Origin: Terriglobia bacterium
Lineage (GTDB): Bacteria; Acidobacteriota; Terriglobia; UBA7540
Direction: 5' to 3'
DNA: 64,000 nt
Assembly (NCBI GenBank): GCA_020073545.1
Contig: JAIQEZ010000009.1
Span: 528-64,527, forward strand
Part shown: in pieces, positions 44,874 through 64,000 of the stretch
How the letters are laid out: every line of letters starts with the position of its first letter
Numbering within the stretch: the stretch's first letter is position 1
The notes under the pieces: model-generated
Databases searched by the model: none
What the model was told of the DNA's origin: nothing
The model's input: the letters and a program-made list of their open reading frames with translations, nothing else
Made by a program: the position numbers and the translations under genes

Positions 44874-44890
44874 AAGGAATAAGGTGCGTT

Positions 44891-45409
44891 ATGACGGAAA
44901 AGAGAAGAGACCAAACTTCACACGGCGGGATGGAAGGCGGCCTCGGGGGGATCCTCAAGGGCCTGGGAGACCTGGTGGAAAAGCTCGGCGAACTGGACGA
45001 AACCGGTCAAGAGCTTTCCAAAACGGGAGAAATTAACGGTCCCGGGAAACAGCTCCGAGGGATTTACGGATTCACCGTTAAGGTCGGGCTGGGCGATCAA
45101 GGGCCTCGCATCGAGCCCTTCGGAAATATTCGCCGAGACATCAAATCCGGGCGAACCGAGGTTCAGGAGGTCCGTGAACCCATGGTCGATATCTTTGAGG
45201 AAGACGACCACCTGCTGGTTTTGGCGGAGTTGCCCGGCATCGGCAAGGAGAACCTGCGGATTGACCTCAAGGACGATGTGCTGACGATTTCCGCCGAGAA
45301 AAGGGACAAGAAGTACCGCAAGGAGGTCCTCTTGCCCCGCAGCGTCTCCAAGGAAAAGATGCAGATCTCGTGTAACAACGGGGTCTTGGAAATTGAATGT
45401 CCTAAGTAA
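44891..45409 (+). CDS. Hsp20/alpha-crystallin family small heat shock protein (GvpH-like position)
   Basis: 172 aa. EPMVDIFEEDDHLLVLAELPGIGKENLRIDLKDDVLTISAEKRDKKYRKEVLLP...NNGVLEIE is an alpha-crystallin domain. Confidence 0.85.
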   Translation: MTEKRRDQTSHGGMEGGLGGILKGLGDLVEKLGELDETGQELSKTGEINGPGKQLRGIYGFTVKVGLGDQGPRIEPFGNIRRDIKSGRTEVQEVREPMVDIFEEDDHLLVLAELPGIGKENLRIDLKDDVLTISAEKRDKKYRKEVLLPRSVSKEKMQISCNNGVLEIECPK

Positions 45410-45426
45410 CTCCCTAGAAAGGCGCC

Positions 45427-47583: not shown

Positions 47584-48402
47584 ATGAAGAAGATTGAGGG
47601 GGCGCTCTATCTTTTTTGCTTTGCCCGCGCGGACCTCGTCGGCGAGCTCGAGGGGACGGGTGTGGATGGCCACCATCCCCTTTTCGTCCTACGAGGCTCG
47701 CCGGATCTAGGTGCGGTCGTCAGCGAGGTGCGCCTGGAAGATTTCTGCGGCCCGGTGGCGGAACTTCGAATGCAAGACCTGGCTTGGGTAGGGCCACGCG
47801 CCTTCCGCCACGAGGCCGTAGTCGAGCAGGTGATGCGTCATTCTCCCGTGCTGCCTGCCCGCTTCGGAACCCTTTTCTCATCGCAGGAAAGCTTGGCGGA
47901 ATTTCTTGCTACACATCGCAAGACCATTTCGCAGTTTCTCGAGCGGGTGGCCGACCAAGAAGAATGGTCAATCAAGGGGCTGCTCGACAGAAAGCAAGCC
48001 CTGCAGGCCCTCATGTCCGGAAGCTTGGCCGCGCAACAGGTGCAGCTTGCCGCGCTGCCTCCGGGAACCCGTTACTTTCAAGAACAGCGCATCCGATCGG
48101 CTGCGGAGAAGGAACTGAGCCGCTGGCTAAACGAAACCTGCCGGCAAGTCGCGAGCGACATGAGGAAGCAGGCTTCGGATTTCCGCGAATGCCAAGTTGT
48201 ACCTCGCGAGCCCCCAGAGAGCGGAACCGAGGTTGTGCTGAATTGGGCCTTTCTACTCCCGAGGAGTGCGACCACGGCATTTCGCTTGCGAATCGATCGG
48301 GTGAACGAAACCCATGCCACCCCGGGGCTGGTTTTCGAACTCTCCGGGCCCTGGCCCCCATATCGCTTCGTTCCTCCCCTATCGATGGGAACGGCCCCAT
48401 GA
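47584..48402 (+). CDS. GvpL/GvpF-family gas vesicle protein (copy 1)
   Basis: The N-terminus YLFCFARADL...GAVVSEVRLEDF...HEAVVEQVMRHSPVLPARFGTLF and the C-terminus LSGPWPPYRF are GvpF/L hallmarks. The ATG directly follows the Cdc48 stop. Confidence 0.85.
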   Translation: MKKIEGALYLFCFARADLVGELEGTGVDGHHPLFVLRGSPDLGAVVSEVRLEDFCGPVAELRMQDLAWVGPRAFRHEAVVEQVMRHSPVLPARFGTLFSSQESLAEFLATHRKTISQFLERVADQEEWSIKGLLDRKQALQALMSGSLAAQQVQLAALPPGTRYFQEQRIRSAAEKELSRWLNETCRQVASDMRKQASDFRECQVVPREPPESGTEVVLNWAFLLPRSATTAFRLRIDRVNETHATPGLVFELSGPWPPYRFVPPLSMGTAP

Positions 48403-49172
48403 GTTGCCTGCTTTACTGCATCTTCCGCAGCCCGGCACAGCCAAGACCCGGAATACCTCCCGGCGTCGGAGGGAAACCGGCATTCGTGGTGACGCGGAAT
48501 GGTTTGAGCGCAGGGCTTTCCGAGCTTGCGGAATCGGACCGGGTTCCTGATATCCCACAAATCCTCGCCTACGAAAGGGTGGTTGAATTCTTCTGTCGCG
48601 ACCTCACCATAATCCCCGTGCGGTATGGATGTCAGCTTGAAGACGCACGCGGGGCCCTCCGGTTGCTGGAAAGACACCGCGAGGAATACAGCGCGCTTCT
48701 CGACGAACTCGAGGGCCTAGGGGAGATGGGCATCCATCTTCTCCTCGACGGTTCCCGAGATGCAACGGAGAACGATGCACTGCCTGTCGCTCCCCAATCC
48801 TTTCCCCTTCCCTGTAGTTCCGGTGCTGCCTACCTTGCAGCAAAGCGACAACGTTATTTGGGTCTGGACCGGTTAGCCCTGCACGAGCGCTTGTTGGTGG
48901 ACGAGGTTTGCGGCTCCCTGTCCGGCCTCTTCGTCCGGCACAAGGTGGAATTTCCCGACTCGACCAGGAACCAACTGCTCTCCCTTTATTTCCTCGTGCC
49001 CCGCGGTTATGTCGAATCCTTTCGCCAAGCCGCTCGCAACCTCCGCTCGAAGGAGCCCGTCAAGCTGCTCTTGAGTGGCCCCTGGCCACCCTACAACTTC
49101 GTTCATTCCCTCGAAACGGCGATCCTGCCGCCACACGCTAGCCCCGAAAACAGCCTGCCCCTCAAAGGGTGA
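48399..49172 (+). CDS. GvpL/GvpF-family gas vesicle protein (copy 2)
   Basis: The ATG at 48399 overlaps the upstream stop (ATGA). MSCLLYCIFRS...ILAYERVVEFFCRDLTIIPVRYGC...LLSGPWPPYNF. The N-terminal half of the 518-aa track ORF is out-of-frame overlap. Confidence 0.8.
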   Translation: MSCLLYCIFRSPAQPRPGIPPGVGGKPAFVVTRNGLSAGLSELAESDRVPDIPQILAYERVVEFFCRDLTIIPVRYGCQLEDARGALRLLERHREEYSALLDELEGLGEMGIHLLLDGSRDATENDALPVAPQSFPLPCSSGAAYLAAKRQRYLGLDRLALHERLLVDEVCGSLSGLFVRHKVEFPDSTRNQLLSLYFLVPRGYVESFRQAARNLRSKEPVKLLLSGPWPPYNFVHSLETAILPPHASPENSLPLKG

Positions 49173-49550: not shown

Positions 49551-49710
49551 GCCCCTTGCGTCCCTTGTACTCTAAAGACGCTTCCAAGGCTTGTGCGTCC
49601 GATGTTCCGCTAATCGGGCTTCGGCCACAACACAAAATGTATGCCTCTCCAATAAAATGAAGAGGTTTACGTAATAAAGGGGGCCAATCCAATGAGCCCC
49701 CATTTTTATT

Positions 49711-50232
49711 TCACGCCTGTTTTCTCTCAATTCGAGCACGGATCGTTTCCAAGTCCAAAAACTTATTCGCAACGTTGATTAGGTCGTTAGAGATCGATCC
49801 CTTTCGACCAACAATGGTGACGACCTTTCCGATTGCGCGCAAGTGGCCAATGACCGGAATATAGTCGCTATCGCAGCCCATCAAGACAATTTCATCGTAA
49901 GTGTTGGCCTCGGTAAGCAACCTGAAAACCAACTCGATGTCCAGGTTCCCCTTGATCCTCAGGGGAACATCCGATGTCTCACTTTTGATGACTCTGACTT
50001 CCTTGTCCACAACGCTATAACCGATGCTCTGTAAGGCTGTCTTGAAATGACGATATTTTGTAACTCTCTCTGAGTCGCCAACCGGCGGCGTTGCAGTGAA
50101 ATAGTAAGCTGCGGCCTTTTCCTTGTTATCCGTAAAAAAGTTAAAGACCAAGCGCCAGTCAATATGCCAGTGATTGTCTCGCTGGGCATAGAACATGTTG
50201 GCTCCATCTACAAACAGTCCTACTCTTTGCAT
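49711..50232 (-). CDS. NYN (LabA-like/DUF88) domain protein, putative RNase
   Basis: MQRVGLFVDGANMFYA...DIELVFRLL...IVLMGCDSDYIPVIGHLRAIGKVVTIVG is the NYN pattern. The start is set at ATG 50232, which is preceded by ggagga. The upstream part of the track ORF is antisense to a tRNA. Confidence 0.8.
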   Translation of the reverse strand: MQRVGLFVDGANMFYAQRDNHWHIDWRLVFNFFTDNKEKAAAYYFTATPPVGDSERVTKYRHFKTALQSIGYSVVDKEVRVIKSETSDVPLRIKGNLDIELVFRLLTEANTYDEIVLMGCDSDYIPVIGHLRAIGKVVTIVGRKGSISNDLINVANKFLDLETIRARIERKQA

Positions 50233-50315
50233 TTTGTTCCTCCAAGGCGGCGGGACTTCCAAGGCCCGTACCTCATGGGGTATTATATCAGAGTCAGCCA
50301 TTAGAGTCCTCCTGT

Positions 50316-50399
50316 GCGGGGGTGGCGGAACCGGCAGACGCAACAGCCTTGGAAGCTGCTGGACGCAAGTCCGTGCGGGTTCAAATCCCGTCCCCCGCA
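50316..50399 (+). tRNA. Type II (long variable arm) Leu-like tRNA; hand-folded anticodon UGG
   Basis: Hand fold: acceptor GCGGGGG/CCCCCGC (7 bp) with discriminator A; D-arm GCGG-AACCGGCAG-ACGC; anticodon stem ACAGC/GCTGC (A:C mismatch at the top) with loop CTTGGAA; 15-nt variable arm with a GGAC/GTCC stem; T-arm GCGGG-TTCAAAT-CCCGT. No encoded CCA. Confidence 0.8.
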
Positions 50400-50400
50400 C

Positions 50401-51360
50401 TCACCTAACAAGTGGCTCTTTGTACATCAACCGCCTTCCCTCAGCCGCTTTAATCGCTATTACCGTGCGCTCTCCGTCGTTCAGCCCACGGTTATTCCAC
50501 AGAAAGTCGAACTGCCACAAGTAGCGGTGCAAGTATTCCTTGCTAACGTTGTGATAGATTCCCGCGATTCCGCGCTTGATGATGGCGAAAGATGATTCCG
50601 CCGTATTTGTGTGCGCCGTTCCCCGGACGTACTCTCGCTTGCTGTGCCGGACTCTTCGATGGCCGCCAGCAAACTCTTTCCCAATGCCGTCATAGGCGGA
50701 GAAATCGTCTGTGAAAATCCGCGCATTCGGATCGACTACTTCCCGAATGGCTGCCTTGAGAGTCTTGCCGCTAACATCAGCAACCACGCGCCGTCGGATT
50801 TCACCTTGCCGCTGCACAGCCGCGAACACCGGCGTCTTTCTCGTACCGCGTCCCGGCAGGCTATGCCCACGATAGCGCGGTTTGCCGCCCACATAGGTTT
50901 CATCACATTCGACCGTGCCCGTTAGTTTGGGTGCCGTGGCTTGATCTGGGGCCATCGCAAAACGAATCCGGTTCATAAGGAATAGCGCCGACTTGTAACT
51001 GATCTGACAATGCCGCTTGATCTCAAGGGCAGCCACACCTTTCTTCGATGTGGAAGCACGCCAAAACGCATAGCACCAGTGGCGAAGGTCAAGACGGCTC
51101 TCTTCATACACCGTGCCAATACGCACCGTGTATTGCCCCTTGCAATCATGGCAGCGCCAGAGAAACCGCTTGTTTCGTTTACCGCTGGCCGCATCAGTCA
51201 TCTTATAAACCGCCACGCTTCCGCAATGGACGCACGCGGGAGTCTGTCCCCAGCGCAGTTCTTCCAAGAGTTCCACCGCAGCCAATTCATCTGAGCAAGC
51301 CAGTGGAATCTGCTCCACAGTGACGGACCTTGATAGGTTGTGTCGTTTCTCGTTTTCCAT
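50401..51360 (-). mobile_element. IS1595-family (ISXO2-like) transposase gene; IS ends not defined
   Basis: 319 aa. An N-terminal zinc ribbon (CVHCGS...WRCHDCKGQYTVRIGT) is followed by a DDE_Tnp_IS1595-type domain (VECDETYVGGK...IFTDDFSAYDGI...HNVSKEYLHRYL). The stop codon abuts the tRNA 3' end. Confidence 0.85.
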
Positions 51361-51606
51361 GGTCTAATGTTATACATAACACAAGCCTTGTGTCAAGTAA
51401 AAAATGGAGTCTCCCCCACGCTTTTTAGAGTGTATTGTAAAGTTTCTTGATTACTGATATAAGTGTCACAGGTCTACTCGATTCTTCGTCTGTGAGGACA
51501 TCATCTTGGACCTCGGCGACGAAGCGTAAAGACTAGATATATCAGCCCGCCGATGCCCCCCACGACTACATAGAAGGAGAAGTATTCCTCATCGAAATCA
51601 TTACCC

Positions 51607-52437
51607 ATGAACAAGACAGAACTCGTATCCGCACTTTCGGCCCTGGGAACTTGGATACAAGTATTCGGAGTACTTGTAGCGATTGGAATTGTCGGCGAAG
51701 TTGGCGTTGGTGTTCGGAGTTGGATACTCAATAGAAGGTTGCAGGCCATCGAGCGCGTCGAGGACATGGAACAACGGACGGAAATAGCTCGATTAAACCG
51801 AGAGGCTGGAGATGCCCGTAAGGATGCAGCGCTCGCGATAGAACGCGCAAGCAGTGCTGAAGAAAACCTAGCTGGAGCAAATGAGCGAGCTGCACTAGCC
51901 GAACAACATGCCGCAGAGGCAAGCGCCAAAGCGGAAGGGTTCCGTCTTGATATTGCTAAGGCCAATGAACGTGCCGCAGATGCCAACCGAATTGCGGAGC
52001 AAGAAAGACTTGCTCGACTCCAACTAGAAGCTAGGCTTGCGGATCGAGTCTTGACCCCCGACGGGCAATCCCGGCTCACAGCCTTGGCCGCTACCTTTCC
52101 GCATGGCACTCGGATCGACATATTCATGTTCGGCGGCACCTTGGAGATTGCCAATATTACCCAATCAATCAATAAGTCATTGGCAGCCGGGGGCTGGACG
52201 GTACGGCAGTGGCAAGTAACCGGGGGAGGAGCCGTTCGTGGAATATTGGTCGGCACTAACCCCAGTGCCGATGCCGCGACAGCCCGAGCCGCTTCTGGGA
52301 TTATCTCCACGTTAGTTTCGGCAGGGGTAGGCGCAGGCCCTTGGAAGTTCGATGAGTTGGTCATGAGTGGAATGGCGCAGGGACCGGGCGAGCCGATGGA
52401 CGCGCCCATAAGAATGTTCATCGGCAGCAAGCAATAG
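51607..52437 (+). CDS. Hypothetical membrane-anchored coiled-coil protein
   Basis: 276 aa. An N-terminal TM helix (WIQVFGVLVAIGIVGEVGVGV) is followed by an Ala/Glu/Arg-rich coiled coil and a globular C-terminal domain. It is preferred over the low-complexity antisense ORF 51501..52490. Confidence 0.6.
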   Translation: MNKTELVSALSALGTWIQVFGVLVAIGIVGEVGVGVRSWILNRRLQAIERVEDMEQRTEIARLNREAGDARKDAALAIERASSAEENLAGANERAALAEQHAAEASAKAEGFRLDIAKANERAADANRIAEQERLARLQLEARLADRVLTPDGQSRLTALAATFPHGTRIDIFMFGGTLEIANITQSINKSLAAGGWTVRQWQVTGGGAVRGILVGTNPSADAATARAASGIISTLVSAGVGAGPWKFDELVMSGMAQGPGEPMDAPIRMFIGSKQ

Positions 52438-52528
52438 AAAATCCCACCAACAGTCCAAATTAGGACACTACGTCCTTGCGTAAAGTGCATACTTCCGTTT
52501 CGGGAAACCCACCGATACTGAACTCGCG

Positions 52529-52544
52529 TGGCATCAGTCCTGCT
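52529..52544 (+). promoter_or_regulatory. Candidate sigma-54 (-24/-12) promoter of gvpA
   Basis: TGGCAT-cagtc-CTGCT compares with the consensus TGGCAC-N5-TTGCW. GG (52530-31) and GC (52542-43) have the canonical spacing. It lies about 85 nt upstream of the gvpA ATG, and a sigma-54 activator is encoded in the locus. Confidence 0.55.
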
Positions 52545-52955: not shown

Positions 52956-53246
52956 ATGGGTAGATTGTTGGAAGACATGACTCGACTGAGCGAGGAAATC
53001 CAAGCGCTGCGCGGAAGCCGTCGGGCGTTCCGAAAAGAACTCGCGGACGGCAACAAGGATCGCCAGATGGATGTCTTTGAAATGTGTGTCGACCTTGCAG
53101 ACACACAAGCTCGAATGGCAAAGAGGGCGAAAGCGGAGCGTCTTGCTTTCTTGAACAACCTGAAGCGAAACGTCGGCGGGCAGCAACGGGAAATGAGGGC
53201 TGATATTGCTGGCGCGCGCCGTGCCTGGGCGGGCGGGGGCGCGTAG
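52956..53246 (+). CDS. Coiled-coil protein, gvp-associated (paralog 1)
   Basis: 96 aa with a strong RBS (agggagggg). The N-terminus MGRLLEDMTRLSEEIQALRGSR is shared with the next gene. Confidence 0.7.
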   Translation: MGRLLEDMTRLSEEIQALRGSRRAFRKELADGNKDRQMDVFEMCVDLADTQARMAKRAKAERLAFLNNLKRNVGGQQREMRADIAGARRAWAGGGA

Positions 53247-53384: not shown

Positions 53385-53792
53385 ATGGGGATGCTAACCG
53401 AAGACATGACTCGATTGCGGGACGAAATCCTGGCGCTACGAAGCTCGCGCCAGGGACTGATCCATGATCTGGCGCGCGAGACCGAGAAGCGACGGGCTGA
53501 CGTGTCAAGTATGCTCGCCAACACTTCCGAAGCCCTCAGTGCCGTCGCCAAGGCGACGAAAGCCGATCGTTTGGGTTCCATCGCGGACCTCAAAAGCGCC
53601 GTCGCCGACATTCTGAGTGGCGTTAGCACGGATCTGTGCGGCATTCGACAAGTCTGGCTGGCCTCGGGCACTCCAGCGCGCTGGGCTGGGGGGGAATGCG
53701 GAAAACAGACAAGGCAGGTAGCCGCGGCCGACTCGAAAGGAAGCCGGAGTGTGACAGGTCGCAAGCCCGCGCCGGTACGCAAGAAGCGATAG
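53385..53792 (+). CDS. Coiled-coil protein, gvp-associated (paralog 2) with basic C-terminal tail
   Basis: 135 aa with RBS aaggag. MGMLTEDMTRLRDEILALRSSR... is collinear with 52956..53246 over about 90 aa. Confidence 0.7.
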   Translation: MGMLTEDMTRLRDEILALRSSRQGLIHDLARETEKRRADVSSMLANTSEALSAVAKATKADRLGSIADLKSAVADILSGVSTDLCGIRQVWLASGTPARWAGGECGKQTRQVAAADSKGSRSVTGRKPAPVRKKR

Positions 53793-53867
53793 CATTAAGT
53801 CTCCAACAGCCGGGATGCGGGTTAAGCTCCGACGAGCTCGAGATGCTTGGAGAGAGGGAAAAACACG

Positions 53868-54884
53868 ATGAATGGTGACGAGGCGAAGGATGTCCTGGTG
53901 GCCAGCGAAGTAGTCGAACCCCAAGGACACAGTATTGTGCTTGAGCCCAGCGATGAGTTCGTCTTGACCCCGCAGATCAAGGCGCTGGCAGACAGGGCGC
54001 TGAGCTACCTGGATGTCGGATACGCGGTCCACTTCGCAGGGCCGGCAGGCACGGGAAAGACGACCCTCGCCCTGCACGTGGCTGCGCAGATCGGTCGGCC
54101 GGTTGTCCTCATCCATGGCGACGACGAATTTGGCAGTTCCAACCTGATTGGCAAGAATTCCGGCTTCCGCACGTCCAAGCTCATTGATAATTATATTCAC
54201 TCCGTGGTGAAGACCGAAGAAAGCTTGAGCACGCTTTGGGAGGACCATCAGCTCACCACCGCCTGCCTCGACGGACACACCCTCATTTACGATGAGTTCA
54301 ACCGTTCCCGGCCCGAAGCCAACAATGTGCTCCTCAGCATCCTGGAAAAGAGGATTCTCAATCTGCCTAGCCTGCGCCGGTCCGGTGAGGGGTACGTACA
54401 TGTACACGAGAACTTTCGGGCCATCCTGACGTCGAACCCTGAGGAATATGCCGGCGTCCACAAGACGCAGGACGCGCTGGTGGACAGGATGATTACCATC
54501 GACCTCGGACATTTCGATCGCGAAACGGAGATTCAAATCACCAAGGCGAAGTCAGGCATTCCCACCGAGGATGCCGAAAGGATCGTGGACATTGTCAGGG
54601 AGCTCCGCGGGGTGGGTGTGAACAACCACCGCCCCACGATTCGGGCCTGCATCGCCATCGCCAAGATCCTTTCCCGCCGCAATGGGCGCGCCCAGATAGG
54701 GGATCCCACCTTTTGGTGGGTATGCTGCGACGTTCTCAAAACGGACACGGCCAAGGTTACTCATGATGGCCAGTCACTTATGTTGGGGAAGGTGGAAGAG
54801 GCGATCAGGAGAATCTGCGGGAACCATGGGAACGGCAACCATGCGAAGCGCCGAAAGAATCACCACCGGGGCGCTACGGCCTGA
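53868..54884 (+). CDS. gvpN: Gas vesicle AAA+ ATPase GvpN
   Basis: YAVHFAGPAGTGKTTLALHVAAQIGRPVVLIHGD...LIYDEFNRSRPEANNVLLSILEKRIL is the GvpN/CbbQ-type pattern. The start could be 53847 or 53868. Confidence 0.9.
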   Translation: MNGDEAKDVLVASEVVEPQGHSIVLEPSDEFVLTPQIKALADRALSYLDVGYAVHFAGPAGTGKTTLALHVAAQIGRPVVLIHGDDEFGSSNLIGKNSGFRTSKLIDNYIHSVVKTEESLSTLWEDHQLTTACLDGHTLIYDEFNRSRPEANNVLLSILEKRILNLPSLRRSGEGYVHVHENFRAILTSNPEEYAGVHKTQDALVDRMITIDLGHFDRETEIQITKAKSGIPTEDAERIVDIVRELRGVGVNNHRPTIRACIAIAKILSRRNGRAQIGDPTFWWVCCDVLKTDTAKVTHDGQSLMLGKVEEAIRRICGNHGNGNHAKRRKNHHRGATA

Positions 54885-54898
54885 AAAGGAGCGCAAGT

Positions 54899-55204
54899 AT
54901 GCCTATACCGTTAAGGGGTCTAAGGACCATTCGTACGTTGGCTGGTCGAGTGGACCGCCTCTTTGTCCCCCACAGAGCGCACATGCGAGTCGCATGCCTG
55001 GAAATCGAAAAGGCTCGGCGCGCCACCGAAAGAATAACCGCGAGCCGGCGGGTGGCAGAGCTTGATGCCCGTCTCCACGAGATCGAGGCCGAAGAGGCGG
55101 CCCTCTTGCAGGGTCTGGCCGGACGCAAACGGGTTGGTCTGCCTGGGGCTGGGACAAGGCCCACACCGCGGGGGAGTGCCGGTGCGTTTAGGATCAGGTA
55201 CTAA
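54899..55204 (+). CDS. Small hypothetical protein in gvp block 2
   Basis: 101 aa. The RBS aaggag lies 8 nt upstream. Central helix ACLEIEKARRATERITASRRVAELDARLHEIEAEEAALL. Confidence 0.6.
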   Translation: MPIPLRGLRTIRTLAGRVDRLFVPHRAHMRVACLEIEKARRATERITASRRVAELDARLHEIEAEEAALLQGLAGRKRVGLPGAGTRPTPRGSAGAFRIRY

Positions 55205-55281
55205 GGTGAGGGAGCGCGGTGTGGCATTGAAGAGACCCGCTACCTGGAACCTCTGAAATCGTCGCAAGGGGACGAGGAGCG

Positions 55282-55629
55282 ATGATTCTGGAAACCGAAA
55301 AGGAGCTCCGGCAGGTCGTGCAGATTGCCGTCGCCACGGCACTGGCTTGTTGGGGCTTTCCTTTGCTGGCGCTCTTGCTAGTTCTTCTAATCTTGCCGTG
55401 GCAGCCGATCTATCGGATGGCCGCGTATCTCGGGGGTGTGGTCCTGGAAGTCAAAGCGCAAAGGACGGTCAAGCGGGCGATGAAGAAGCTGCACGAGGAA
55501 CCCGCGCACGTCACCCAGCCCAGCCCGGGGGCGGGGGGGGCCGAGCGGGGTTCTCCCGCACATCGTCGTCCTGGGAACTCGGAGGAGAGGATATGCGAAT
55601 CAACTGTTTGGGCTGCGGGTACAAATTAG
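55282..55629 (+). CDS. Small membrane protein in gvp block 2
   Basis: 115 aa with RBS gaggag and a hydrophobic segment VVQIAVATALACWGFPLLALLLVLLILPW. Its 3' end overlaps the next small ORF, so the true stop and extent are uncertain. Confidence 0.45.
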   Translation: MILETEKELRQVVQIAVATALACWGFPLLALLLVLLILPWQPIYRMAAYLGGVVLEVKAQRTVKRAMKKLHEEPAHVTQPSPGAGGAERGSPAHRRPGNSEERICESTVWAAGTN

Positions 55630-55712
55630 ACCTGGACGAGGCTTACGACGACTATGATGGCCCGGTGAAATGCTTCGCATGCGAGGCAATTCTTGAGATC
55701 CGCACGGAATAG
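55593..55712 (+). CDS. 39-aa zinc-ribbon protein in gvp block 2
   Basis: MRINCLGCGYKLDLDEAYDDYDGPVKCFACEAILEIRTE contains two CxxC pairs. A strong RBS (ggaggagagg) precedes the ATG. The TAG stop is followed by 44 in-frame sense codons. Confidence 0.6.
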   Translation: MRINCLGCGYKLDLDEAYDDYDGPVKCFACEAILEIRTE

Positions 55713-55913
55713 GGCTACATCAAAGCGGTCCAGCAAGCGAATATCGCACGGCACCCTTCGGCCAAGGAGGCCTTCGAGCGCGTTCTCAACCCGATGGACG
55801 AGGCTGCCCAGCGGGCGTACGCTTCCGGCCATGCCCGCACCGGTTAAAGGAGAGCGAAGAAACGGCCGATATATCCCCTCAGAGATCATGTTGATGAAAG
55901 GAGTAAGGCAGCC

Positions 55914-56171
55914 TTGGGTGGAGAAAAGCCTGAGGAGGCAGCAAATCGCCGGAATCGACAAAGACCCGAGCTGATGGAGCGCGACCATGCTCGAGCCTCC
56001 CAGACCTTGCTCACCCGTATCTTGGACCTCCACATCTCGGGCCGCACAGCGGACGAAATCGCCGCGCAGCCTCTTACCACCGAGCCCGAGGACGCCATGT
56101 TCCGTGCCGCGATGCTGGTGGAGATGATCCTTCACTACGCCCGCCGCTGTCCGGGGGAGACAAACCAGTGA
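55914..56171 (+). CDS. Small protein with possible helix-turn-helix (LuxR/sigma region-4-like) segment
   Basis: 85 aa from TTG 55914, or 65 aa from ATG 55974. Contains LLTRILDLHISGRTADEIAAQ. The stop overlaps the GTG start of the next gene (GTGA). Confidence 0.45.
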   Translation: MGGEKPEEAANRRNRQRPELMERDHARASQTLLTRILDLHISGRTADEIAAQPLTTEPEDAMFRAAMLVEMILHYARRCPGETNQ

Positions 56172-56971
56172 GTATGGGCCAAACAACGACCGCGAAAGCG
56201 CCTGAGAAGCAACCGCCGAGTCAACCTGCAGCCAGGGGCAGGACGTACCTTTACGCGGTCATAGGCGACGCGCAGGGCCGGACGTACGGTGACTTCGGCG
56301 TCGATGGGCGAAAGGTATATTCCATCCCTGCTGGGAAAGTGGCGGCTGTCGTCAGCGACGTGCCCAGCGGAACGCTCCGCCCGGAACGCTCCCGTCTCGC
56401 CGCCCATCAGGAAGTCCTCAAAAAACTCATGGCGGAGGCCACGCCGCTGCCCATGTCCTTCGGGATCCTTGCGGACAGCCCGCAGGCCGTTCGAAACATG
56501 CTTTCTCGCAACCAGCATGCCCTCCGCGAGCAACTCCGTCGCGTGGCGGGCAAAGTGGAGATGGGTTTGCGAGTCACTTGGGACGTGCCCAACATCTTCG
56601 AGTATTTCGTGAATACCCATCCGGAACTGAGGCTCGCCCGGGACCGATTACTGGGAGGCCAACGCGAGCCCACGCAGGAGCAGAAGATCGAAGTCGGAAG
56701 GCTGTTCGAGCGTCTTCTCAACGAGGATCGGGAAGCCTACGCCGACAAAGTGGAAGCAATCCTAGCGCCCCACTGCTTTGAGATCGAGCCGAACAAATGC
56801 CGCAACGAAGGCGAGGCGCTGAATCTGGCCTGTCTCGTCGAGCGTGCGGCGATGCCACAATTCGAAAGCAGCGTCTTCGAGGCCGCGAAGCAGTTTGATA
56901 ACAACTTTGCCTTCGACTATAACGGACCGTGGGCGCCCCACAACTTTGTCGAGGTCGACCTCGAGCTTTAA
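56168..56971 (+). CDS. GvpL/GvpF-family gas vesicle protein (copy 3)
   Basis: YLYAVIGDAQ...VYSIPAGKVAAVVSDVP...LAAHQEVLKKLMAEATPLPMSFG...YNGPWAPHNF. Confidence 0.85.
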   Translation: MSMGQTTTAKAPEKQPPSQPAARGRTYLYAVIGDAQGRTYGDFGVDGRKVYSIPAGKVAAVVSDVPSGTLRPERSRLAAHQEVLKKLMAEATPLPMSFGILADSPQAVRNMLSRNQHALREQLRRVAGKVEMGLRVTWDVPNIFEYFVNTHPELRLARDRLLGGQREPTQEQKIEVGRLFERLLNEDREAYADKVEAILAPHCFEIEPNKCRNEGEALNLACLVERAAMPQFESSVFEAAKQFDNNFAFDYNGPWAPHNFVEVDLEL

Positions 56972-56994: not shown

Positions 56995-57291
56995 ATGGTG
57001 CTCGTGGATGACGTCTTGATGTTTCCCATCCGCAGTGTGCTCTGGATCTTCCGTGAGATTCACAACGCCGCCCAGGAGGAGCTTGCCAACGAGAGTGAAT
57101 CCATTACCGCGGAGCTGAGTGGTCTTTACATGATGCTGGAAACCGGAAAGATCTCGGAGGAAGAGTTCGCCGCGGAAGAAAAGACCTTACTCGACCGGTT
57201 GGACAGAATCCAAAAGCCTGACAGGGGCCTCGAACGGGAGGATGGCAGAGAGCAAAAGCAGGACCAACGTGAAGAGAGAAGCGTCGCGTGA
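56995..57291 (+). CDS. gvpG: Gas vesicle protein GvpG
   Basis: MVLVDDVLMFPIRSVLWIFREIHNAAQEEL...LSGLYMMLETGKISEEEFAAEEKTLLDRL is the GvpG pattern. RBS gggagga. Confidence 0.85.
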   Translation: MVLVDDVLMFPIRSVLWIFREIHNAAQEELANESESITAELSGLYMMLETGKISEEEFAAEEKTLLDRLDRIQKPDRGLEREDGREQKQDQREERSVA

Positions 57292-57316
57292 GGGGCGCAT
57301 TAGATGCGCAGAGAGC

Positions 57317-59263
57317 ATGGCAGCTCCACCGTTTTTGGACAACCGAGGCTTACAACTGCTTGTCTTTGGAGGCAAAGGCGGAGTCGGAAAGACGACGTGC
57401 GCTACCGCAACGGCGCTGAAATTGGCCAGACGCTCACCCAAATCATCTTTTCTCCTGGTTTCCACGGACCCCGCGCACTCCCTCACGGATAGCCTGGCGG
57501 GCTCGCTTCCACCCGACAATTTGAAGGTATTCGAACTGGATGCGCAGGAATACCTCGCCACCTTCAAGAAGAGCCATCACGCCAAACTCCGGGAAATCGC
57601 CTCGCGTGGAACCTTCCTCGATGACGACGAAATTAGCCGCTTCCTGGATCTCTCCTTGCCGGGCTTGGATGAACTCATGGGCTTTCTGGAGATCTCCGCC
57701 TGGGTGGAAAATCGGAGCTACGATTGCATTATCCTGGACACCGCCCCCAGTGGTCACACGCTACGCTTGCTTGCCATGCCGGAATTCCTCCGCAAATGGC
57801 TGGACATGCTGGAAACGCTGCTGGCGAAGCACCGCTACATGAAGTGGGCCTTCACCCGCTCCAACCATCGCGACGAGCTCGACACCTTCCTCGAGGGGTT
57901 AGCGGCATCGGTGAAACGGATGGAAGAATTACTCCAGGATCCGGTTCGTTGCCGGTTTGTCCCGGTCATGCTCGCCGAGGCGATGAGCATCCGCGAGACC
58001 ATGGCAATCGTGAAGGAACTGGATCGTCTCAAGCTTCCAAGGACCGACGTCGTGATCAACGGGCTCTATCCGGATAACGCCTGCGCGATTTGTCGGGACG
58101 GGCGCCCCCGCCAGATTCGGGAACTGCAGAGTCTTTTCCGTCAAACCCATCTGTCCAAGTTGGCATTCTGGGCTGTCCCGTTTTACGCCGAGGAGGTCCG
58201 CGGGCGGGAAGCTCTCGAATCGTTCTGGGATCAGGTGGAGCAAATCAGCGCAGCGCCACGCGCGGGGCGCGGACCGTCGGTGGCTCCGCCGCTAAGCGTG
58301 GAGGCAGCCGCACCGTGGCCTCCCCCTGAGACTACCCTTCTGATCTTTGCGGGCAAGGGTGGTGTGGGAAAGACAACCCTGGCCTGCGCCACAGCACTGC
58401 AACTGGCGCACACCGGTTCAGGGAAGAATGTCCTTCTGTTCTCGACGGGACCTGCTCACTCGTTGTCAGGGTGTCTCGAGACGCAGATCGACTCCCGGCC
58501 GAAGGTCGTGAGCTCCGGCCTCACGGCCCTGGACATTGATTCGGAGGCGGAATTGGAGGCTTTGAAAAAACAGTACGCGGGGGACATTGAGAAATTCCTG
58601 CACTCGCTGGCGAGCAACTTTGATCTGACTTTCGACCGCGAGGTGCTCGAGAGGATTCTGGATCTCTCCCCTCCCGGCCTGGACGAGGTGATGGCCCTGA
58701 CGCGCGTCATGGCCCTACTCGCCTCAGGCAGCTACGACGTTCTGGTCCTCGACTCAGCATCGACGGGTCACCTGGTTCGGCTGCTGGAGCTCCCGGAAAT
58801 CATTGACCAGTGGCTGAAGCTCTTTTTCGAACTCTTCCTGAAATACCAACAGGTCTTTCGCCTGACGAAGTTTTCTCAGGAATTGGTGACGATGTCGAAA
58901 AATCTCAAAAGACTCAGAGAACTGTTGAGCGATCCGGCTAGGGCCGCTCTGTATGCCGTTAGCATTCCGACAGATATGGCCTTTGAGGAAACACGGGATT
59001 TGGTGGCCGCCTGCGAGCGCTTAGGCATCCGGGTGCCCGGGATGTTTCTCAACCTCGTCACGCCGCGCAGTGATTGCGACTTGTGTTCCGCCCTGTACCG
59101 CCGGGAGTCTCGAGTGCGCCAGAAGTTTCAACAGAGCCTTTCGGGTAGGGACGTCACAGTGGTTTATCGTCGCGGAGACATGCGAGGCCTTTGCCGGCTG
59201 GGAGAACTGGGGAAGGCCCCTTACCAAAGCAGCCGCGTGGAATCGAGAGCCTATGTCTGTTGA
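57317..59263 (+). CDS. Tandem-duplicated ArsA/Get3 (TRC40)-family ATPase
   Basis: It has two homologous halves. Each carries a deviant Walker A (FGGKGGVGKTT and FAGKGGVGKTT), an STDPAHSL/STGPAHSL motif, and a DTAP-type switch (ILDTAPSGHTLRLL and VLDSASTGHLVRLL). The start is set at ATG 57317. Confidence 0.85.
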   Translation: MAAPPFLDNRGLQLLVFGGKGGVGKTTCATATALKLARRSPKSSFLLVSTDPAHSLTDSLAGSLPPDNLKVFELDAQEYLATFKKSHHAKLREIASRGTFLDDDEISRFLDLSLPGLDELMGFLEISAWVENRSYDCIILDTAPSGHTLRLLAMPEFLRKWLDMLETLLAKHRYMKWAFTRSNHRDELDTFLEGLAASVKRMEELLQDPVRCRFVPVMLAEAMSIRETMAIVKELDRLKLPRTDVVINGLYPDNACAICRDGRPRQIRELQSLFRQTHLSKLAFWAVPFYAEEVRGREALESFWDQVEQISAAPRAGRGPSVAPPLSVEAAAPWPPPETTLLIFAGKGGVGKTTLACATALQLAHTGSGKNVLLFSTGPAHSLSGCLETQIDSRPKVVSSGLTALDIDSEAELEALKKQYAGDIEKFLHSLASNFDLTFDREVLERILDLSPPGLDEVMALTRVMALLASGSYDVLVLDSASTGHLVRLLELPEIIDQWLKLFFELFLKYQQVFRLTKFSQELVTMSKNLKRLRELLSDPARAALYAVSIPTDMAFEETRDLVAACERLGIRVPGMFLNLVTPRSDCDLCSALYRRESRVRQKFQQSLSGRDVTVVYRRGDMRGLCRLGELGKAPYQSSRVESRAYVC

Positions 59264-59540
59264 AACCAGCACCGGAAACCGGCCACCCGTGGTTTCCGAA
59301 CTCGCGCTCGATGACGCCAAGCGGGTCTCTTTGTGTGAGGTGCTCGACCGGGTGCTGAACAAGGGGGTTGTGGTGGCCGGGGATGTGACGATCTCGGTCG
59401 CTGATGTCGACCTCATTTACCTCGGACTGCAACTCGTGCTCACATCCATGGAGAAGGCGCGCCAAGGCTTTCGCCGAGCGCCGGTACAATTGGACGCAGA
59501 CCTGGGCATCGAGAAGGAGCTGGCCAGTGGATTCCGCTGA
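59253..59540 (+). CDS. GvpA/J/M-family gas vesicle protein (GvpM/S-like)
   Basis: 95 aa. SLCEVLDRVLNKGVVVAGDVTISVADVDLIYLGLQLVLTSMEKA. The start overlaps the ArsA-like gene by 11 nt. Confidence 0.85.
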   Translation: MSVETSTGNRPPVVSELALDDAKRVSLCEVLDRVLNKGVVVAGDVTISVADVDLIYLGLQLVLTSMEKARQGFRRAPVQLDADLGIEKELASGFR

Positions 59541-59904
59541 GCTGCCGTGGGTCGAGTCTGAAGCCCTCAGTGACTTCGCTCGGGTGATGAAAGTAGGCCC
59601 GTTACCTCGGTCTCAACCGTCTAAAGGTCGGCAGGGGCGGAACGCCCGCCTGAACCTCGATGAGAATGATATAAAGAACGGCCTCGGACAACTGGTGCTG
59701 ACTCTGGTCAAGCTCTTGCACGAATTGCTGGAGCGCCAGGCCATCCACCGCATCGAGGGCGGCGACTTGAGTGACCAGCAGATTGAAAGGCTCGGAATGA
59801 CGCTGATGAGGCAAACCCAGGAAATCACCCGGCTCCGAAAGGAATTCGGCCTGGAAGAAGAAGATCTTAACCTGGATCTCGGCCCGCTGGGCAAGCTTTT
59901 GTAA
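59527..59904 (+). CDS. gvpK: Gas vesicle protein GvpK
   Basis: LGQLVLTLVKLLHELLERQAIHRIEGGDLSDQQIERLGMTLMRQTQEITRLRKEFGLEEEDLNLDLGPLGKLL. The GTG start at 59527 overlaps the upstream stop and is tentative. Confidence 0.85.
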   Translation: MDSAELPWVESEALSDFARVMKVGPLPRSQPSKGRQGRNARLNLDENDIKNGLGQLVLTLVKLLHELLERQAIHRIEGGDLSDQQIERLGMTLMRQTQEITRLRKEFGLEEEDLNLDLGPLGKLL

Positions 59905-59915
59905 AAGGAGATGTC

Positions 59916-60239
59916 ATGGCGCAGCAACGCAGCCTGTCACACGCGGTGCAAAGTTCAACTTTGGCGGACGTGTTGGAGCGGGTTTTAGACAAAGGGGTCG
60001 TCATCGCTTGCGATATCCGAGTGAAGCTGGTCGATATCGAACTCCTGTCCATCCAGATCCGCCTGGTCATCTGCTCGGTCGACAAAGCCAAGGAAATGGG
60101 GATGGATTGGTGGGTGAACAACCCGATCTTTCGCCGGGAAGAGGACCGTGAAACGCTGGCAACCTCTCTCGCCAGCATCGAGGAAAGGATGGCAAGGCTG
60201 GAGGCCTCTCTCCCGAAAGAGGAAGTGCGTGCTGGCTAA
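59916..60239 (+). CDS. gvpJ: GvpA/J-family gas vesicle protein (GvpJ-like)
   Basis: TLADVLERVLDKGVVIACDIRVKLVDIELLSIQIRLVICSVDKAKEMGMDWW. Confidence 0.85.
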   Translation: MAQQRSLSHAVQSSTLADVLERVLDKGVVIACDIRVKLVDIELLSIQIRLVICSVDKAKEMGMDWWVNNPIFRREEDRETLATSLASIEERMARLEASLPKEEVRAG

Positions 60240-61631: not shown

Positions 61632-64000
61632 TTAAAGCGGGGCGACCTCCTCCGTGTATTCGGTCTCAACGTTGTCGAAGACCAGTCCCCGGAACTGGTC
61701 AGGTTTCAGTTTCGGAAGGGTGAGTTGAACCCGATGTTCCATGCCGGGTGACAGGTAAGAAACATCCGCGTAGAAACCGACAAAGGATGGCCGATGCACG
61801 CGAATTGAGGCATAGGCTTTCCGCAGCTCGACCGGCTGACCGTCGATCTTGAGGTGAATCTCCATGGCGTCATCATGCTCCGCGACTTGCACGAACAGGA
61901 GCAAGCGTTCGGGCGCGAGCCAGGTGGTTTTCAGATCTTCTTCCGTCCAGGGAATGGGCCAGGACTTCTTCCTCGCCGCCAGTTGTTCAAAAACGCGGGA
62001 GGGAATCCGAAATGTTCCTTGAAGCGTGCCGCCCTCTCCGCCTGCGGGCCCGTTCATTTCCACGGCCTGGCTTCGTCCGAAGTAGGCACCGGCAAACCGG
62101 ACGGGGATGGTAATGACGCCGCCCACCTGCTGGAATTTCGCAGTTCGGCCGTTGACCGTCACTTGCTTGACGGTGGCGCCTTTCGGAACCAGGGCCAGCA
62201 CCTTTTCATCCGTCCCAATCTCGCCACGAATCCCGGTCAATGCCAGCGATCCACCGGCAAGGGCCGCCTGGCCCGGTGCGTTGAAGAGGAGCGCGCTGGA
62301 GATCGGTTCGGAGGCCGGCACGACTTTCAGGACCAGCGCGCTCGTGCCGTCCAGGGTGAGGGAGACGCTATCCCCGTATGACCAGAGACCGGCCTCCGCT
62401 TTGCCGAGCAGGCGTCCTTCCAGGGGATAAATCTCCTTCAGCAGGTAATGGCCTTGCTTCTTGAGACCTATTGAACCATCCAGAGCGAATCGCGCGAGCG
62501 TCTTGTTGCCGTTGGAATTAAAGAGGAAGAGGTATCCACAATTCTTCACGATGGCCGAGGTCCCGTCCGCCTTCCCGATGGCGGGCTGGCCGAGAATCGG
62601 ACGGGTGTTTCGCAGGAAGTCCCGGTTCGTGTCGGCCCAATCCAGCCAGTGACGGAACCATTGCTTGTCCGGCTCGGAAAACAGGTGGAACTCCTCGGGG
62701 TCGCGCGCCGGAATCATGTCAATCACATTGTTCCACCCCGCTGTGGCAATCGAGGAGAGCACTGAATACCGCCACCCCAGATAGTCCCAGTCACGCTGGC
62801 GGAACGGCACCAACATGTCTCTTGATTTCGCTGTACTGATGTGGGGCATTTCCCCGCTTTCATCATTCCGGGGAGTCTGATGTGTGAAAAACCCCGGCAT
62901 GATCTCCGTCGGGCAGAACTCATAGCTGCGATACCAGTATGCCGTGTAGCGCTGCCGGTTGGCAGAGACCCGGTCGATGTGCAGGTCGGGGAAAACCGTG
63001 AAGCTTTCCGGCTGCTCGTCGGTGGACGTGGGGTGCGGGTAGCTGCCGGCCAGCCAGATCCAGGGGCCGTACCTCTGATAGAGTTGCCGGCCGTCTATCG
63101 CCATATCCGGAACTTGGGTGCGGAGAGTTTCTAACACCCGTCGCCAGCCCCACCATTGCGCATAGCGGCTCGTGCCGTCGTACCAGAGGAAGGTATAGTC
63201 GAAACAGAATCCCCCGATGCCGGTTCGACGATAAAACGCCAGCAGGTTTTCAATCAGCCAATCCTGAAAGCTACGAACACCGAGGCTGGCATAGAGCGTC
63301 TGACCCTGAAATTTGGTGTTGCGCGCCAGCCACTCCGGATTTTGTGAGAACGGCAGCACGGGATAAACATAGGCAACCAGTTTGAGTCCTTTGGATCGGG
63401 CGAGGTCCAGCAGCCACTCGACCGATGCGGGAAGCGGGTCGGCCTTGGGGTCCCACTCGCCCTTGCGTATCTTCTGGCCCAGGTTCAACCAGAGTTCGTA
63501 CTCCCACTTCCAGTCGTCGACGCTGTCTTCGCGGCGGGCCAGCGCGGAGTTGCTAGGGGTGGTGAGGACATACTCCGCGCCAAGTTCAGCCGCGCGGTCG
63601 AATATCCGCTCGATCTCTACCCTTCCGGCCGGAGAATCGATATCGAGCTGATAATCATTTTCGCACCAGCCGACGTGAATCCTTAGCGGCTCGTTCGGTT
63701 TGTGGAGCAAAAACGCCCGCACGCAGTCCGTGAACGCCTGGACCTCAGCCTCATCCGGGCCGGACCCGGGCGGGGACGGAGCCTCTCCAGGCAGCTTCCA
63801 TTCAGGGAGCATCTTTTCGGGAAGCCGCCGGCCCGTCAGCCTGTAAGTGCCAAGGCACCCCCGGTCGGACTCGAATGGTCCGTACTCAGCCTTCCAATCC
63901 ATTTCGGGATCGTAGGAGATCTCGAGGGAGGCGCTATCCTGATGAACCTTCAGGAAGGGGTTCTGAACCAGAACAAGAATCCCAAATGCCTCATCAAACC
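61632..64000 (-). CDS. Putative glycoside hydrolase-like TIM-barrel protein, 5' end outside the window
   Basis: The frame stays open upstream of the annotated Met to the window edge. The central region (...GLKLVAYVYP...GFCFDYTF...) looks like a glycosidase-like barrel followed by beta-sandwich domains. The family was not assigned. Confidence 0.6.
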   Translation of the reverse strand, partial: FDEAFGILVLVQNPFLKVHQDSASLEISYDPEMDWKAEYGPFESDRGCLGTYRLTGRRLPEKMLPEWKLPGEAPSPPGSGPDEAEVQAFTDCVRAFLLHKPNEPLRIHVGWCENDYQLDIDSPAGRVEIERIFDRAAELGAEYVLTTPSNSALARREDSVDDWKWEYELWLNLGQKIRKGEWDPKADPLPASVEWLLDLARSKGLKLVAYVYPVLPFSQNPEWLARNTKFQGQTLYASLGVRSFQDWLIENLLAFYRRTGIGGFCFDYTFLWYDGTSRYAQWWGWRRVLETLRTQVPDMAIDGRQLYQRYGPWIWLAGSYPHPTSTDEQPESFTVFPDLHIDRVSANRQRYTAYWYRSYEFCPTEIMPGFFTHQTPRNDESGEMPHISTAKSRDMLVPFRQRDWDYLGWRYSVLSSIATAGWNNVIDMIPARDPEEFHLFSEPDKQWFRHWLDWADTNRDFLRNTRPILGQPAIGKADGTSAIVKNCGYLFLFNSNGNKTLARFALDGSIGLKKQGHYLLKEIYPLEGRLLGKAEAGLWSYGDSVSLTLDGTSALVLKVVPASEPISSALLFNAPGQAALAGGSLALTGIRGEIGTDEKVLALVPKGATVKQVTVNGRTAKFQQVGGVITIPVRFAGAYFGRSQAVEMNGPAGGEGGTLQGTFRIPSRVFEQLAARKKSWPIPWTEEDLKTTWLAPERLLLFVQVAEHDDAMEIHLKIDGQPVELRKAYASIRVHRPSFVGFYADVSYLSPGMEHRVQLTLPKLKPDQFRGLVFDNVETEYTEEVAPL

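Follow-up and report, generated by a model that had tools for sequence, protein, structure and literature searches.

Castillo and Saier (2010; PMC2963123) described two-domain homologues of ArsA that are encoded in the gas-vesicle protein (gvp) operons of four phyla, namely Bacteroidetes/Chlorobi, a delta-proteobacterium, cyanobacteria, and Acidobacteria. The acidobacterial case was Aba1 of Acidobacteria bacterium Ellin345. The gvp-linked homologues were devoid of the C113/C172/C422 cysteines and were proposed to supply energy, together with GvpN, for a step in gas-vesicle biogenesis; the M. xanthus homologue was not gvp-linked (PMC2963123). In our study, a gene of this kind was analysed in a Terriglobia bacterium, which shares its broad lineage with Ellin345. 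The gene encodes a tandem (pseudo-dimeric) ATPase of the Get3 type and is embedded in a gvp operon within 64,000 nucleotides of contig JAIQEZ010000009.1 (positions 528 to 64,527 of the forward strand), a stretch that is called the window throughout. By its sequence features the window ATPase belongs to the gvp-associated group of Castillo and Saier (clusters 4/6, with Aba1 and the Anabaena/Nostoc proteins). The members of these clusters likewise contain two ArsA-like domains in about 635–650 aa, are encoded in gvp operons, lack Cys113/172/422, and have no ars genes or arsR nearby; nothing essential differs between this group and the window ATPase. An earlier note on this DNA knew of no description of such a role in gas vesicles, but the energising of vesicle biogenesis was already proposed in the 2010 study. 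The gvp association itself is a rediscovery, and the idea of a Get3-style chaperone joins two published threads. Added here to the described group are the Get3-type traits, a much wider range of phyla, a degenerate nucleotide site in the C half, and operons from which the gene is absent.

Bodensohn et al. (2019; PMC6593721) reported tandem bacterial Get3 proteins with a TRC40 insert and CxxC motifs and called them 'unique in all domains of life'. A hydrophobic groove was predicted in them, their function was given as unknown, and gas vesicles were not mentioned. 'Group 8' of that study likewise carries two domains per chain, each with a CxxC motif and a helical subdomain that contains the insert. 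It came from Myxococcales and some Proteobacteria and is not tied to gas vesicles, whereas the window ATPase is acidobacterial and gvp-embedded. The eukaryotic tandem Get3 forms have no CxxC (Bodensohn et al., 2019; PMC6593721), unlike the window ATPase. Chlamydomonas reinhardtii ArsA1 (5zme/5zmf) is also a single-chain pseudo-dimeric Get3 without an arsenite site; however, it is only about 23% identical to the window ATPase, with a high whole-chain root-mean-square deviation, and its clients are tail-anchored (TA) membrane proteins of the chloroplast, which are delivered to a lipid membrane. The archaeal Get3/TRC40 proteins (3zq6, 3ug6) and yeast Get3 contain the CxxC zinc motif and a client-binding subdomain as long as that of the window halves. 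They are one-domain homodimers with two equivalent sites, whereas the window ATPase is fused and, in its clade, apparently asymmetric in catalysis. The partners of eukaryotic Get3 are Get1/2 and Get4/5. The ArsA proteins of E. coli and L. ferriphilum (1f48, 9nbw) have the tandem architecture and the nucleotide-binding core in common with the window ATPase, but they contain the Cys triad, have no paired CxxC, possess helical subdomains 14–20 residues shorter, and are linked to ars operons; their internal duplication was apparently a separate event. In the Nodularia genome paper, nsp15480, which is numbered right after the gvp genes, was entered only as an arsenic gene. Among the literature examined, a link between gas vesicles and ArsA was found only in Castillo and Saier. 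No paper with 'gas vesicle' together with 'Get3' was found in the searchable literature, and the top-ranked literature matches gave no link of gas vesicles with tail-anchored, TRC40, SIMIBI, Cdc48 or holdase.

The earlier note had described a 648-aa ATPase of two ArsA-like halves between gvpG and a GvpA-family gene, and both the open reading frame (ORF) and the Pfam matches agreed with this description. An intact ORF was found on the + strand from nucleotide 57242 to 59263, in which the ATG at 57317 gives the 648-aa protein. It contained two matches to PF02374 ArsA_ATPase (E 2.7e-111) and scored 381 bits with the NCBIfam model TIGR00345 GET3_arsA_TRC40, against a cut-off of 135. The other possible starts are GTG 57269 (664 aa) and ATG 57242 (673 aa). 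The GTG codon is preceded by AGGA 5 nt upstream and lines up with the called ATG start in L001, a relative on a 4.36-Mb contig whose ATPase is 69% identical; the 664-aa version is also the form called in many homologues. We consider GTG 57269 as plausible a start as ATG 57317. From ATG 57317 the gene begins just after gvpG, as previously claimed, with a 25-nt spacer behind the gvpG stop codon (57289–57291), whereas from GTG 57269 it would overlap gvpG by 23 nt and have no spacer. With either start codon the gene is tightly packed in the operon. Its 3′ end overlaps the ATG start (59253) of the next GvpA-family gene by 11 nt, which was correctly noted before, and that gene matched PF00741 Gas_vesicle (E 2.4e-18). 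The same 3′ overlap was present in L001, and across the window, L001, and L003 the GvpA-family start overlapped the Get3-like stop by 8–11 nt. The gene runs in the direction of the gvp genes and is packed between them, so the reading of it as part of the gvp operon holds. The named close homologues of the ATPase were from Terriglobia, including Candidatus Korobacteraceae.

Judged from motifs, alignments, and a structure model, both halves of the ATPase are of the Get3 type rather than the ArsA type. The closest solved structure by sequence was the Chlamydomonas tandem Get3 ArsA1 (5zme, 2.6e-46), followed by archaeal TRC40/Get3 (3zq6, 1.6e-40; 3ug6, 2.4e-38), and E. coli ArsA was lower (2.5e-34). 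The N half aligned end to end, including the insert region, with M. thermautotrophicus TRC40 (3zq6), and its CAIC motif lined up with the zinc-binding CEFC of that protein. In the tests of the Get3/TRC40 family the N half contained all motifs, and the C half contained an intact P-loop, GPAH in switch I, and DSASTGH in switch II. A deviant Walker A motif and a DTAP-like switch had earlier been assigned to each half; this stood for the N half, and in the C half the switch is present but degenerate. Conservation was followed in a set of close homologues (the 120 closest clusters, 65–99% identity) and in 121 wider family sequences (33–59% identity). All four CxxC cysteines were invariant in 120/120 close homologues. 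In the wider family, the G, K, and T positions of the N-half Walker A were essentially invariant, the N-half switch I Asp was present in 119/121, and the G and K positions of the C-half Walker A were invariant in 121/121. The CxxC motifs of the two halves were retained or lost jointly: 83 of these sequences contained both, 28 neither, and 10 one only (Fisher p = 1.6e-17, uncorrected for phylogeny). This pattern fits the prediction from one Cys4 site common to both halves.

The ORFs at the 80 loci of a genome scan fell into three groups. The distance from switch II to Asn was about 100 in the N half and 93 in the C half of the window ATPase. The gvp-linked tandem proteins had the same distances (about 100 and 93), no full Cys pattern, and CxxC in both halves in 8/14; all of them were gvp-linked. 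The 24 tandem ArsAs mostly showed 80–86 (N half) and 73–77 (C half), with the full Cys triad pattern, no paired CxxC, and no gvp linkage (0/24). The single-domain archaeal Get3s mostly showed 91–109, without a Cys triad pattern, with CxxC in about half, and with none gvp-linked. In a neighbour-joining tree of the separated halves (no bootstrap), the gvp-linked N halves formed one clade and the C halves another, and both clades were placed with the single-domain Get3s, away from the N and C halves of ArsA. From this placement we infer, with moderate confidence, that the internal duplication was independent of that in ArsA. The AF2 model, built on an alignment of 30 diverse family members, had a pLDDT of 85.7 and a pTM of 0.85. 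In the N-half subdomain it showed helices at residues 145–180 and 187–207; the C-terminus was short and of low confidence, with no added extra domain evident. The target-normalised TM-score was 0.75 for the whole chain against closed ArsA, and 0.72–0.82 for each half against TRC40 and the Get3–TA complexes.

The second nucleotide site was found to be degenerate. In the C half, the switch I Asp was substituted by Gly in 117/120 close homologues and the switch II Pro by Ala or Ser in 115/120; both Lys of the Walker A motif were invariant in 120/120. The next ten more distant representatives contained the Asp in 10/10 and the Pro in 9/10, and 117/121 sequences of the wider family had Asp in the C-half switch I. 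In yeast Get3 the switch I Asp, D57, is catalytic, and mutating D57 traps the clients. Because the equivalent Asp is lost, the fixed C-half site of the acidobacterial clade probably binds nucleotide without hydrolysing it. Degenerate switch I loops were reported in Get3d too. By the alignments, the degenerate second catalytic site is specific to the acidobacterial clade, and it is new here, as is the apparently independent duplication.

For gvp linkage, the loci of the GTDB genome scan were searched with the window Gvp proteins (tblastn), and gvp genes within 10 kb were counted. Members of the family were gvp-linked at 13/14 genome loci, whereas none of the 66 other ArsA/Get3 loci gave a match to GvpA, GvpF/L, GvpG or GvpK. 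The linked loci covered about seven phyla (Chloroflexota, Acidobacteriota, Gemmatimonadota, Myxococcota, Rokubacteria, Planctomycetota, and Chlorobiaceae). They came from Anaerolineales, Dehalococcoidales, Blastocatellia, Thermoanaerobaculia, Terriglobia, Vicinamibacterales, Gemmatimonadaceae, Labilithrix, Rokubacteria, Phycisphaerales, and Chlorobiaceae, and at every linked locus the Get3-like gene was co-directional with the gvp genes. A survey of co-occurrence had been suggested in the earlier note, and it shows that gvp linkage is a property of the gvp-associated tandem ATPase family, not a casual co-location. L001 and a Nostoc plasmid were also gvp-linked. The plasmid of Nostoc sphaeroides contained gvpA-A-C-N-J-K-F...F followed by an 'ArsA family ATPase' and then an AAA ATPase; on Nostoc plasmid p4 (L084 9801–13584) the pair of a Get3-like gene and a gene for a Cdc48-like AAA protein of about 613 aa ends the gvp cluster. 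The one unlinked family locus was in a Lyngbya metagenome-assembled genome (MAG; L007 8062–12001), where the Get3-like and AAA+ genes were adjacent in divergent orientation and no gvp gene was found within 10 kb; their products were 60% and 72% identical, respectively, to the Nostoc counterparts. A Chlorobiaceae MAG (L013 4328–5257) contained a single-domain Get3 of about 325 aa between Hsp20 and a Cdc48-like AAA+ in its gvp cluster; the gvp association is therefore not confined to the fused form. Across phyla the most constant neighbour of the Get3-like gene was gvpF/L, not the GvpA-family gene. Hsp20/GvpH and a Cdc48-like AAA+ were encoded at the same locus in the window, L001, L004, L012, L013, and the Nostoc plasmid, and about half of the gvp-linked loci contained no Hsp20 or Cdc48 within 10 kb. 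An apparent fusion of GvpG and Get3 (P0104, 754 aa, L003 104–2368), which carries a GvpG Pfam domain, was considered as Rosetta-stone evidence and rejected, because an alignment of L003 with the window and L001 showed that one base is deleted from gvpG near its 3′ end, which shifts the reading into the open upstream frame of the ATPase; a frameshift mutation or an error of assembly is the probable cause.

The gene was not found in every operon of the window type. A metagenome scan seeded with GvpK returned mainly window-like clusters (56–89% GvpK identity), and the following count applies to that operon type only. Among the 30 syntenic metagenomic loci with enough upstream sequence to judge, 24 showed the order F-G-Get3x2-A-K-A. 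The other six (L112, L114, L138, L140, L147, and L156) showed F-G-A-K-A without a Get3-like gene, with about 100–700 nt from gvpG to the GvpA-family gene and otherwise the order of the window (N-x-F-G-A-K-A). The Get3-like gene is naturally present or absent among operons of this type. Since 6/30 syntenic operons are without it, the ATPase is accessory and dispensable in cis, not a core requirement.

Get3 is known as a TA-targeting factor and as a holdase. We propose that the window ATPase acts as an ATP-gated, zinc-clamped, pseudo-dimeric holdase of the Get3 type for the small hydrophobic Gvp proteins, a role to which we give an even chance of being correct. The ATPase would be made from the gas-vesicle protein transcript, and its two halves would pack on each other like the Get3 homodimer, probably clamped by one zinc ion that is held by both CxxC motifs. 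Binding of ATP would bring the extended helical subdomains of both halves together as a hydrophobic cradle, which would shield the hydrophobic segments of small aggregation-prone Gvp proteins once they are off the ribosome. The Gvp proteins are only 72–107 aa long, so their hydrophobic parts would largely still be in the ribosome exit tunnel at termination, and the logic by which TA proteins need Get3 would then apply to them as well. Candidate clients are the downstream GvpA-family J/M/S proteins and/or the N-terminal helix of the upstream GvpG. Hydrolysis in the N half would free the client at the growing vesicle; in the acidobacterial clade the C half would likely only bind nucleotide, which would make a one-stroke, slower clamp. 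The broader picture is of a dedicated post-translational holdase and delivery system of the Get3 type that serves the shell proteins of an organelle with a protein wall. Such a system would be GET-like without a membrane or Get1/2, would form a proteostasis module with Hsp20 and a Cdc48-like protein in many lineages, and would have a single catalytic site in the acidobacterial clade. We advance this broader picture tentatively, as rather less probable than even.

Several points weigh against a holdase role. No classical tail-anchored proteins are encoded in the cluster by a hydropathy scan, and the hydrophobic segments of the Gvp proteins are only moderately hydrophobic (maximum KD15 about 1.6–1.8). 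The hydrophobic segments of GvpA form a beta-hairpin, not a transmembrane helix, and a gas vesicle offers no lipid membrane as a site of insertion. No Get1/2-like receptor candidate was seen in the cluster. The helical subdomains show a conserved i/i+3/i+4 hydrophobic periodicity, and ordinary helix packing would give the same. Family members without gvp genes in cis are found at the Lyngbya locus (L007) and, from the literature, in M. xanthus, and to these are added the six operons without the gene. To our knowledge, the vesicle-making model gvp clusters of Halobacterium, B. megaterium, and Serratia contain no such gene either.

The automatic annotation would make the protein a genuine arsenite- or antimonite-stimulated ATPase of an ArsA pump that is merely located in a gvp cluster. 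The tandem two-domain layout in about 600–650 aa speaks for this, as do the annotation of homologues by JGI as arsenite-transporting ATPase and the best whole-chain Foldseek matches, which were ArsA structures (9nbw, 1ii0; query-normalised TM-score 0.58–0.67). However, the ATPase scored only 168.2 bits with the ArsA equivalog TIGR04291 against a cut-off of 650, and 170 with the haloarchaeal ArsA model NF041417 against 800. The comparator was a Citrobacter plasmid arsA, which lies in an arsR-arsC-arsD-arsA-arsC-ACR3 operon and whose product contains Cys114/Cys173/Cys422, corresponding to the E. coli triad C113/C172/C422. In a three-way alignment with this ArsA, the window ATPase had no Cys at any of the three triad positions, so that the check for the metalloid triad proposed in the earlier note did not uphold an ArsA reading; it was also longer behind switch II, by about 14 residues in the N half and by about 20 in the C half. 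The triad pattern was present in 24/24 tandem ArsAs of the control set, nearly all of which had a shorter helical subdomain, and was absent from nearly all gvp-linked proteins; the gvp-linked L012 protein contained a Cys in one scanned triad segment. As the note had said, no ars genes are near: tblastn of the whole 64-kb window gave no homologue of ArsR, ArsC, ArsD or ACR3 at E <= 0.01, and no arsB was found there. With the window halves also apart from the ArsA halves in the tree, the ArsA identity was ruled out by the equivalog score, the missing triad, the short subdomains of ArsA, and the lack of ars genes in the window. By these sequence measures the window ATPase is not an arsenite-pump ArsA; the pump explanation is already contradicted, and we regard it as extremely improbable.

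Two other roles were considered. The protein may be an ATP-driven switch or motor for another vesicle step (nucleation, spacing or GvpF/L regulation), as known for other SIMIBI ATPases (positioning by MinD/ParA, gating by NifH), and not a holdase. Its deviant Walker A class is common to MinD/ParA, weak CbiA/ParA Pfam matches were found on the ATPase, and gvpF/L rather than the GvpA-family gene is the most constant neighbour; Castillo and Saier went no further than to propose that, together with GvpN, it 'energises a biogenic step' (PMC2963123). We consider such a switch rather unlikely: the scores were far below the cut-offs for ParA_partition (53.5 against 180 bits) and MinD (26.7 against 212.9), the short C-terminus offers no evident extra domain, and the differences from ArsA are exactly the client-binding elements of Get3, that is, the extended helical subdomain and CxxC. 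The protein may instead be a general holdase for hydrophobic or stress-damaged proteins, or a bacterial TA insertion factor, which is merely often beside gvp genes and may join Hsp20 and the Cdc48-like AAA+ in a quality control that disposes of vesicle protein after misassembly or collapse. In Get3/TRC40 the CxxC cysteines act as a redox switch to an ATP-independent holdase. The shared loci with Hsp20/GvpH and Cdc48-like AAA+, the Lyngbya pair and the M. xanthus homologue away from gvp genes, and the dispensability of the gene in cis would all suit such a role. But the gvp linkage (13/14 against 0/66 loci) is far from casual, about half of the linked loci are without Hsp20 or Cdc48, and the window gene is inside the structural-gene operon, where it overlaps a GvpA-family gene and is not beside Hsp20/Cdc48; we find the general role unlikely, to a slightly greater degree than the switch.

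GvpA-family proteins are extremely prone to aggregation, yet they are kept in solution and supplied to the growing vesicle. When gas vesicles are expressed heterologously for acoustic reporter genes, toxicity and the efficiency of assembly are frequent limits. A clamp of the Get3 type in many bacterial gvp operons is a candidate chaperone, and its co-expression could raise yields. If the proposed holdase role is true, it would be the first function for the tandem bacterial Get3 proteins, which Get3 researchers have flagged as unique and unexplained. Three points limit the impact: the association with gvp genes was published in 2010, the gene is clearly accessory, and the evidence is computational. 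The ATPase gives a lead on how gas vesicles are assembled and on what bacterial tandem Get3s do, in a gvp-linked family that was already described.

The gene lies inside a large gvp locus on the + strand, of which the features are given in Table 1. L001 contained the same gene order without the interruption described below, and the order in the upstream module (43464–49172) was the same in both. The start of gvpG was taken from the alignment with L001 and L003 and gives a hydrophobic N-terminal helix, MVLVDDVLMFPIRSVLWIF. The gvpK gene overlaps the preceding GvpA-family gene by 14 nt, and likewise in L001. An element similar in spacing to that upstream of the window gvpA was found upstream of gvpA in L001 (about 6235–6250, TGGCCACCGGTTTGCC). 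Because a −24/−12-type element and a locus-encoded NtrC-type activator are both present, the operon, including the Get3-like gene, may be sigma-54 dependent. Between 52000 and 61600, sigma-70 promoter-like and terminator-like sites were not commoner than in shuffled sequence; internal promoters or terminators that would uncouple the ATPase from the operon were rejected, as the counts equal the shuffled expectation.

Table 1. Features of the tandem ATPase gene and of the surrounding gvp locus, numbered by position in the window
Feature	Position	Strand	Detail or evidence
NtrC-type sigma-54 activator	43464–44873	+	
Hsp20/GvpH	44891–45409	+	
Cdc48-like double AAA+	45427–47583	+	
gvpF/L	47584–48402	+	
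gvpF/L	48399–49172	+	
NYN-domain ORF	49711–50400	-	in interruption
tRNA-Pro(TGG)	50316–50400	+	in interruption
IS1595-family transposase	50401–51360	-	in interruption
ORF of 276 aa, unknown	51607–52437	+	in interruption
sigma-54-type promoter-like element TGGCATCAGTCCTGCT (GG-N10-GC)	52529–52544	+	86 nt upstream of gvpA
gvpA, 72 aa	52630–52848	+	from ATG 52630; first gene of the operon of the ATPase; PF00741, ribosome-binding site
gvpN (AAA+)	53847–54884	+	PF07728 E 5e-17; tblastn 2e-148 to the L001 syntenic gene
small ORF after gvpN	54899–55204		
gvpF/L paralogue	56168–56971	+	PF06386 E 3e-66
gvpG	56995–57291	+	likely start ATG 56995; PF05120 E 1.7e-16
tandem (pseudo-dimeric) Get3-type ATPase	57317–59263	+	ORF, PF02374 x2, TIGR00345, AF2 model
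N-half deviant Walker A/P-loop GKGGVGKT	57371–57394	+	aa 19–26
N-half switch I STDPAHS	57461–57481	+	aa 49–55; Asp51 intact
N-half switch II DTAPSGH	57737–57757	+	aa 141–147
N-half extended helical subdomain after switch II, TRC40-insert-like	57758–57949	+	aa 148–211; alignments and model
N-half CxxC, CAIC	58082–58093	+	aa 256–259; at the position of the Get3 zinc-binding motif
C-half Walker A GKGGVGKT	58352–58375	+	aa 346–353
C-half degenerate switch I STGPAHS	58442–58462	+	aa 376–382; catalytic Asp replaced by Gly378
C-half degenerate switch II DSASTGH	58751–58771	+	aa 479–485; Pro lost
C-half extended helical subdomain	58772–58942	+	aa 486–542; alignment, model, distance
C-half CxxC, CDLC	59075–59086	+	aa 587–590
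GvpA-family gene (GvpJ/M/S-like, 95 aa)	59253–59540	+	PF00741 E 2.4e-18
gvpK	59527–59904	+	likely start GTG 59527 after AAGGAG; PF05121 E 2.7e-31
second GvpA-family gene (GvpJ-like, 107 aa)	59916–60239	+	last of the operon; PF00741 E 3.8e-16

The gvp locus is interrupted from about 49700 to 52440, between the second gvpF/L gene and gvpA; the matching gap in L001 is only about 440 nt. A further segment of about 960 nt (55205–56167, from the small ORF after gvpN to gvpF/L) is not matched in L001, in which 22 nt separate the two genes. This segment contained overlapping small ORFs, one with a strongly hydrophobic segment (55282–55629) and one (55347–55712) with a zinc-ribbon-like C-terminus of the form CxxC...CxxC, and none of these small ORFs gave a family match. 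Just downstream of the gvp locus, a 756-aa ORF (61632–63902, − strand) gave no Pfam match at E <= 0.001. The Hsp20/GvpH protein passed the threshold of PF17886 ArsA_HSP20 (23.8 against 22.5 bits). This family is an alpha-crystallin domain fused to Get3d, whereas here Hsp20 and the Get3-like protein are encoded by separate genes in one locus. Between gvpA and gvpN, the ORFs 52956–53246 (96 aa) and 53385–53792 (135 aa) were found to be paralogous, with the common N-terminus MG.L.EDMTRL..EI.ALR.SR and no Pfam match. Their position is kept in L001 and in many metagenomic loci, and they may be a lineage-specific Gvp accessory or GvpC-like protein.

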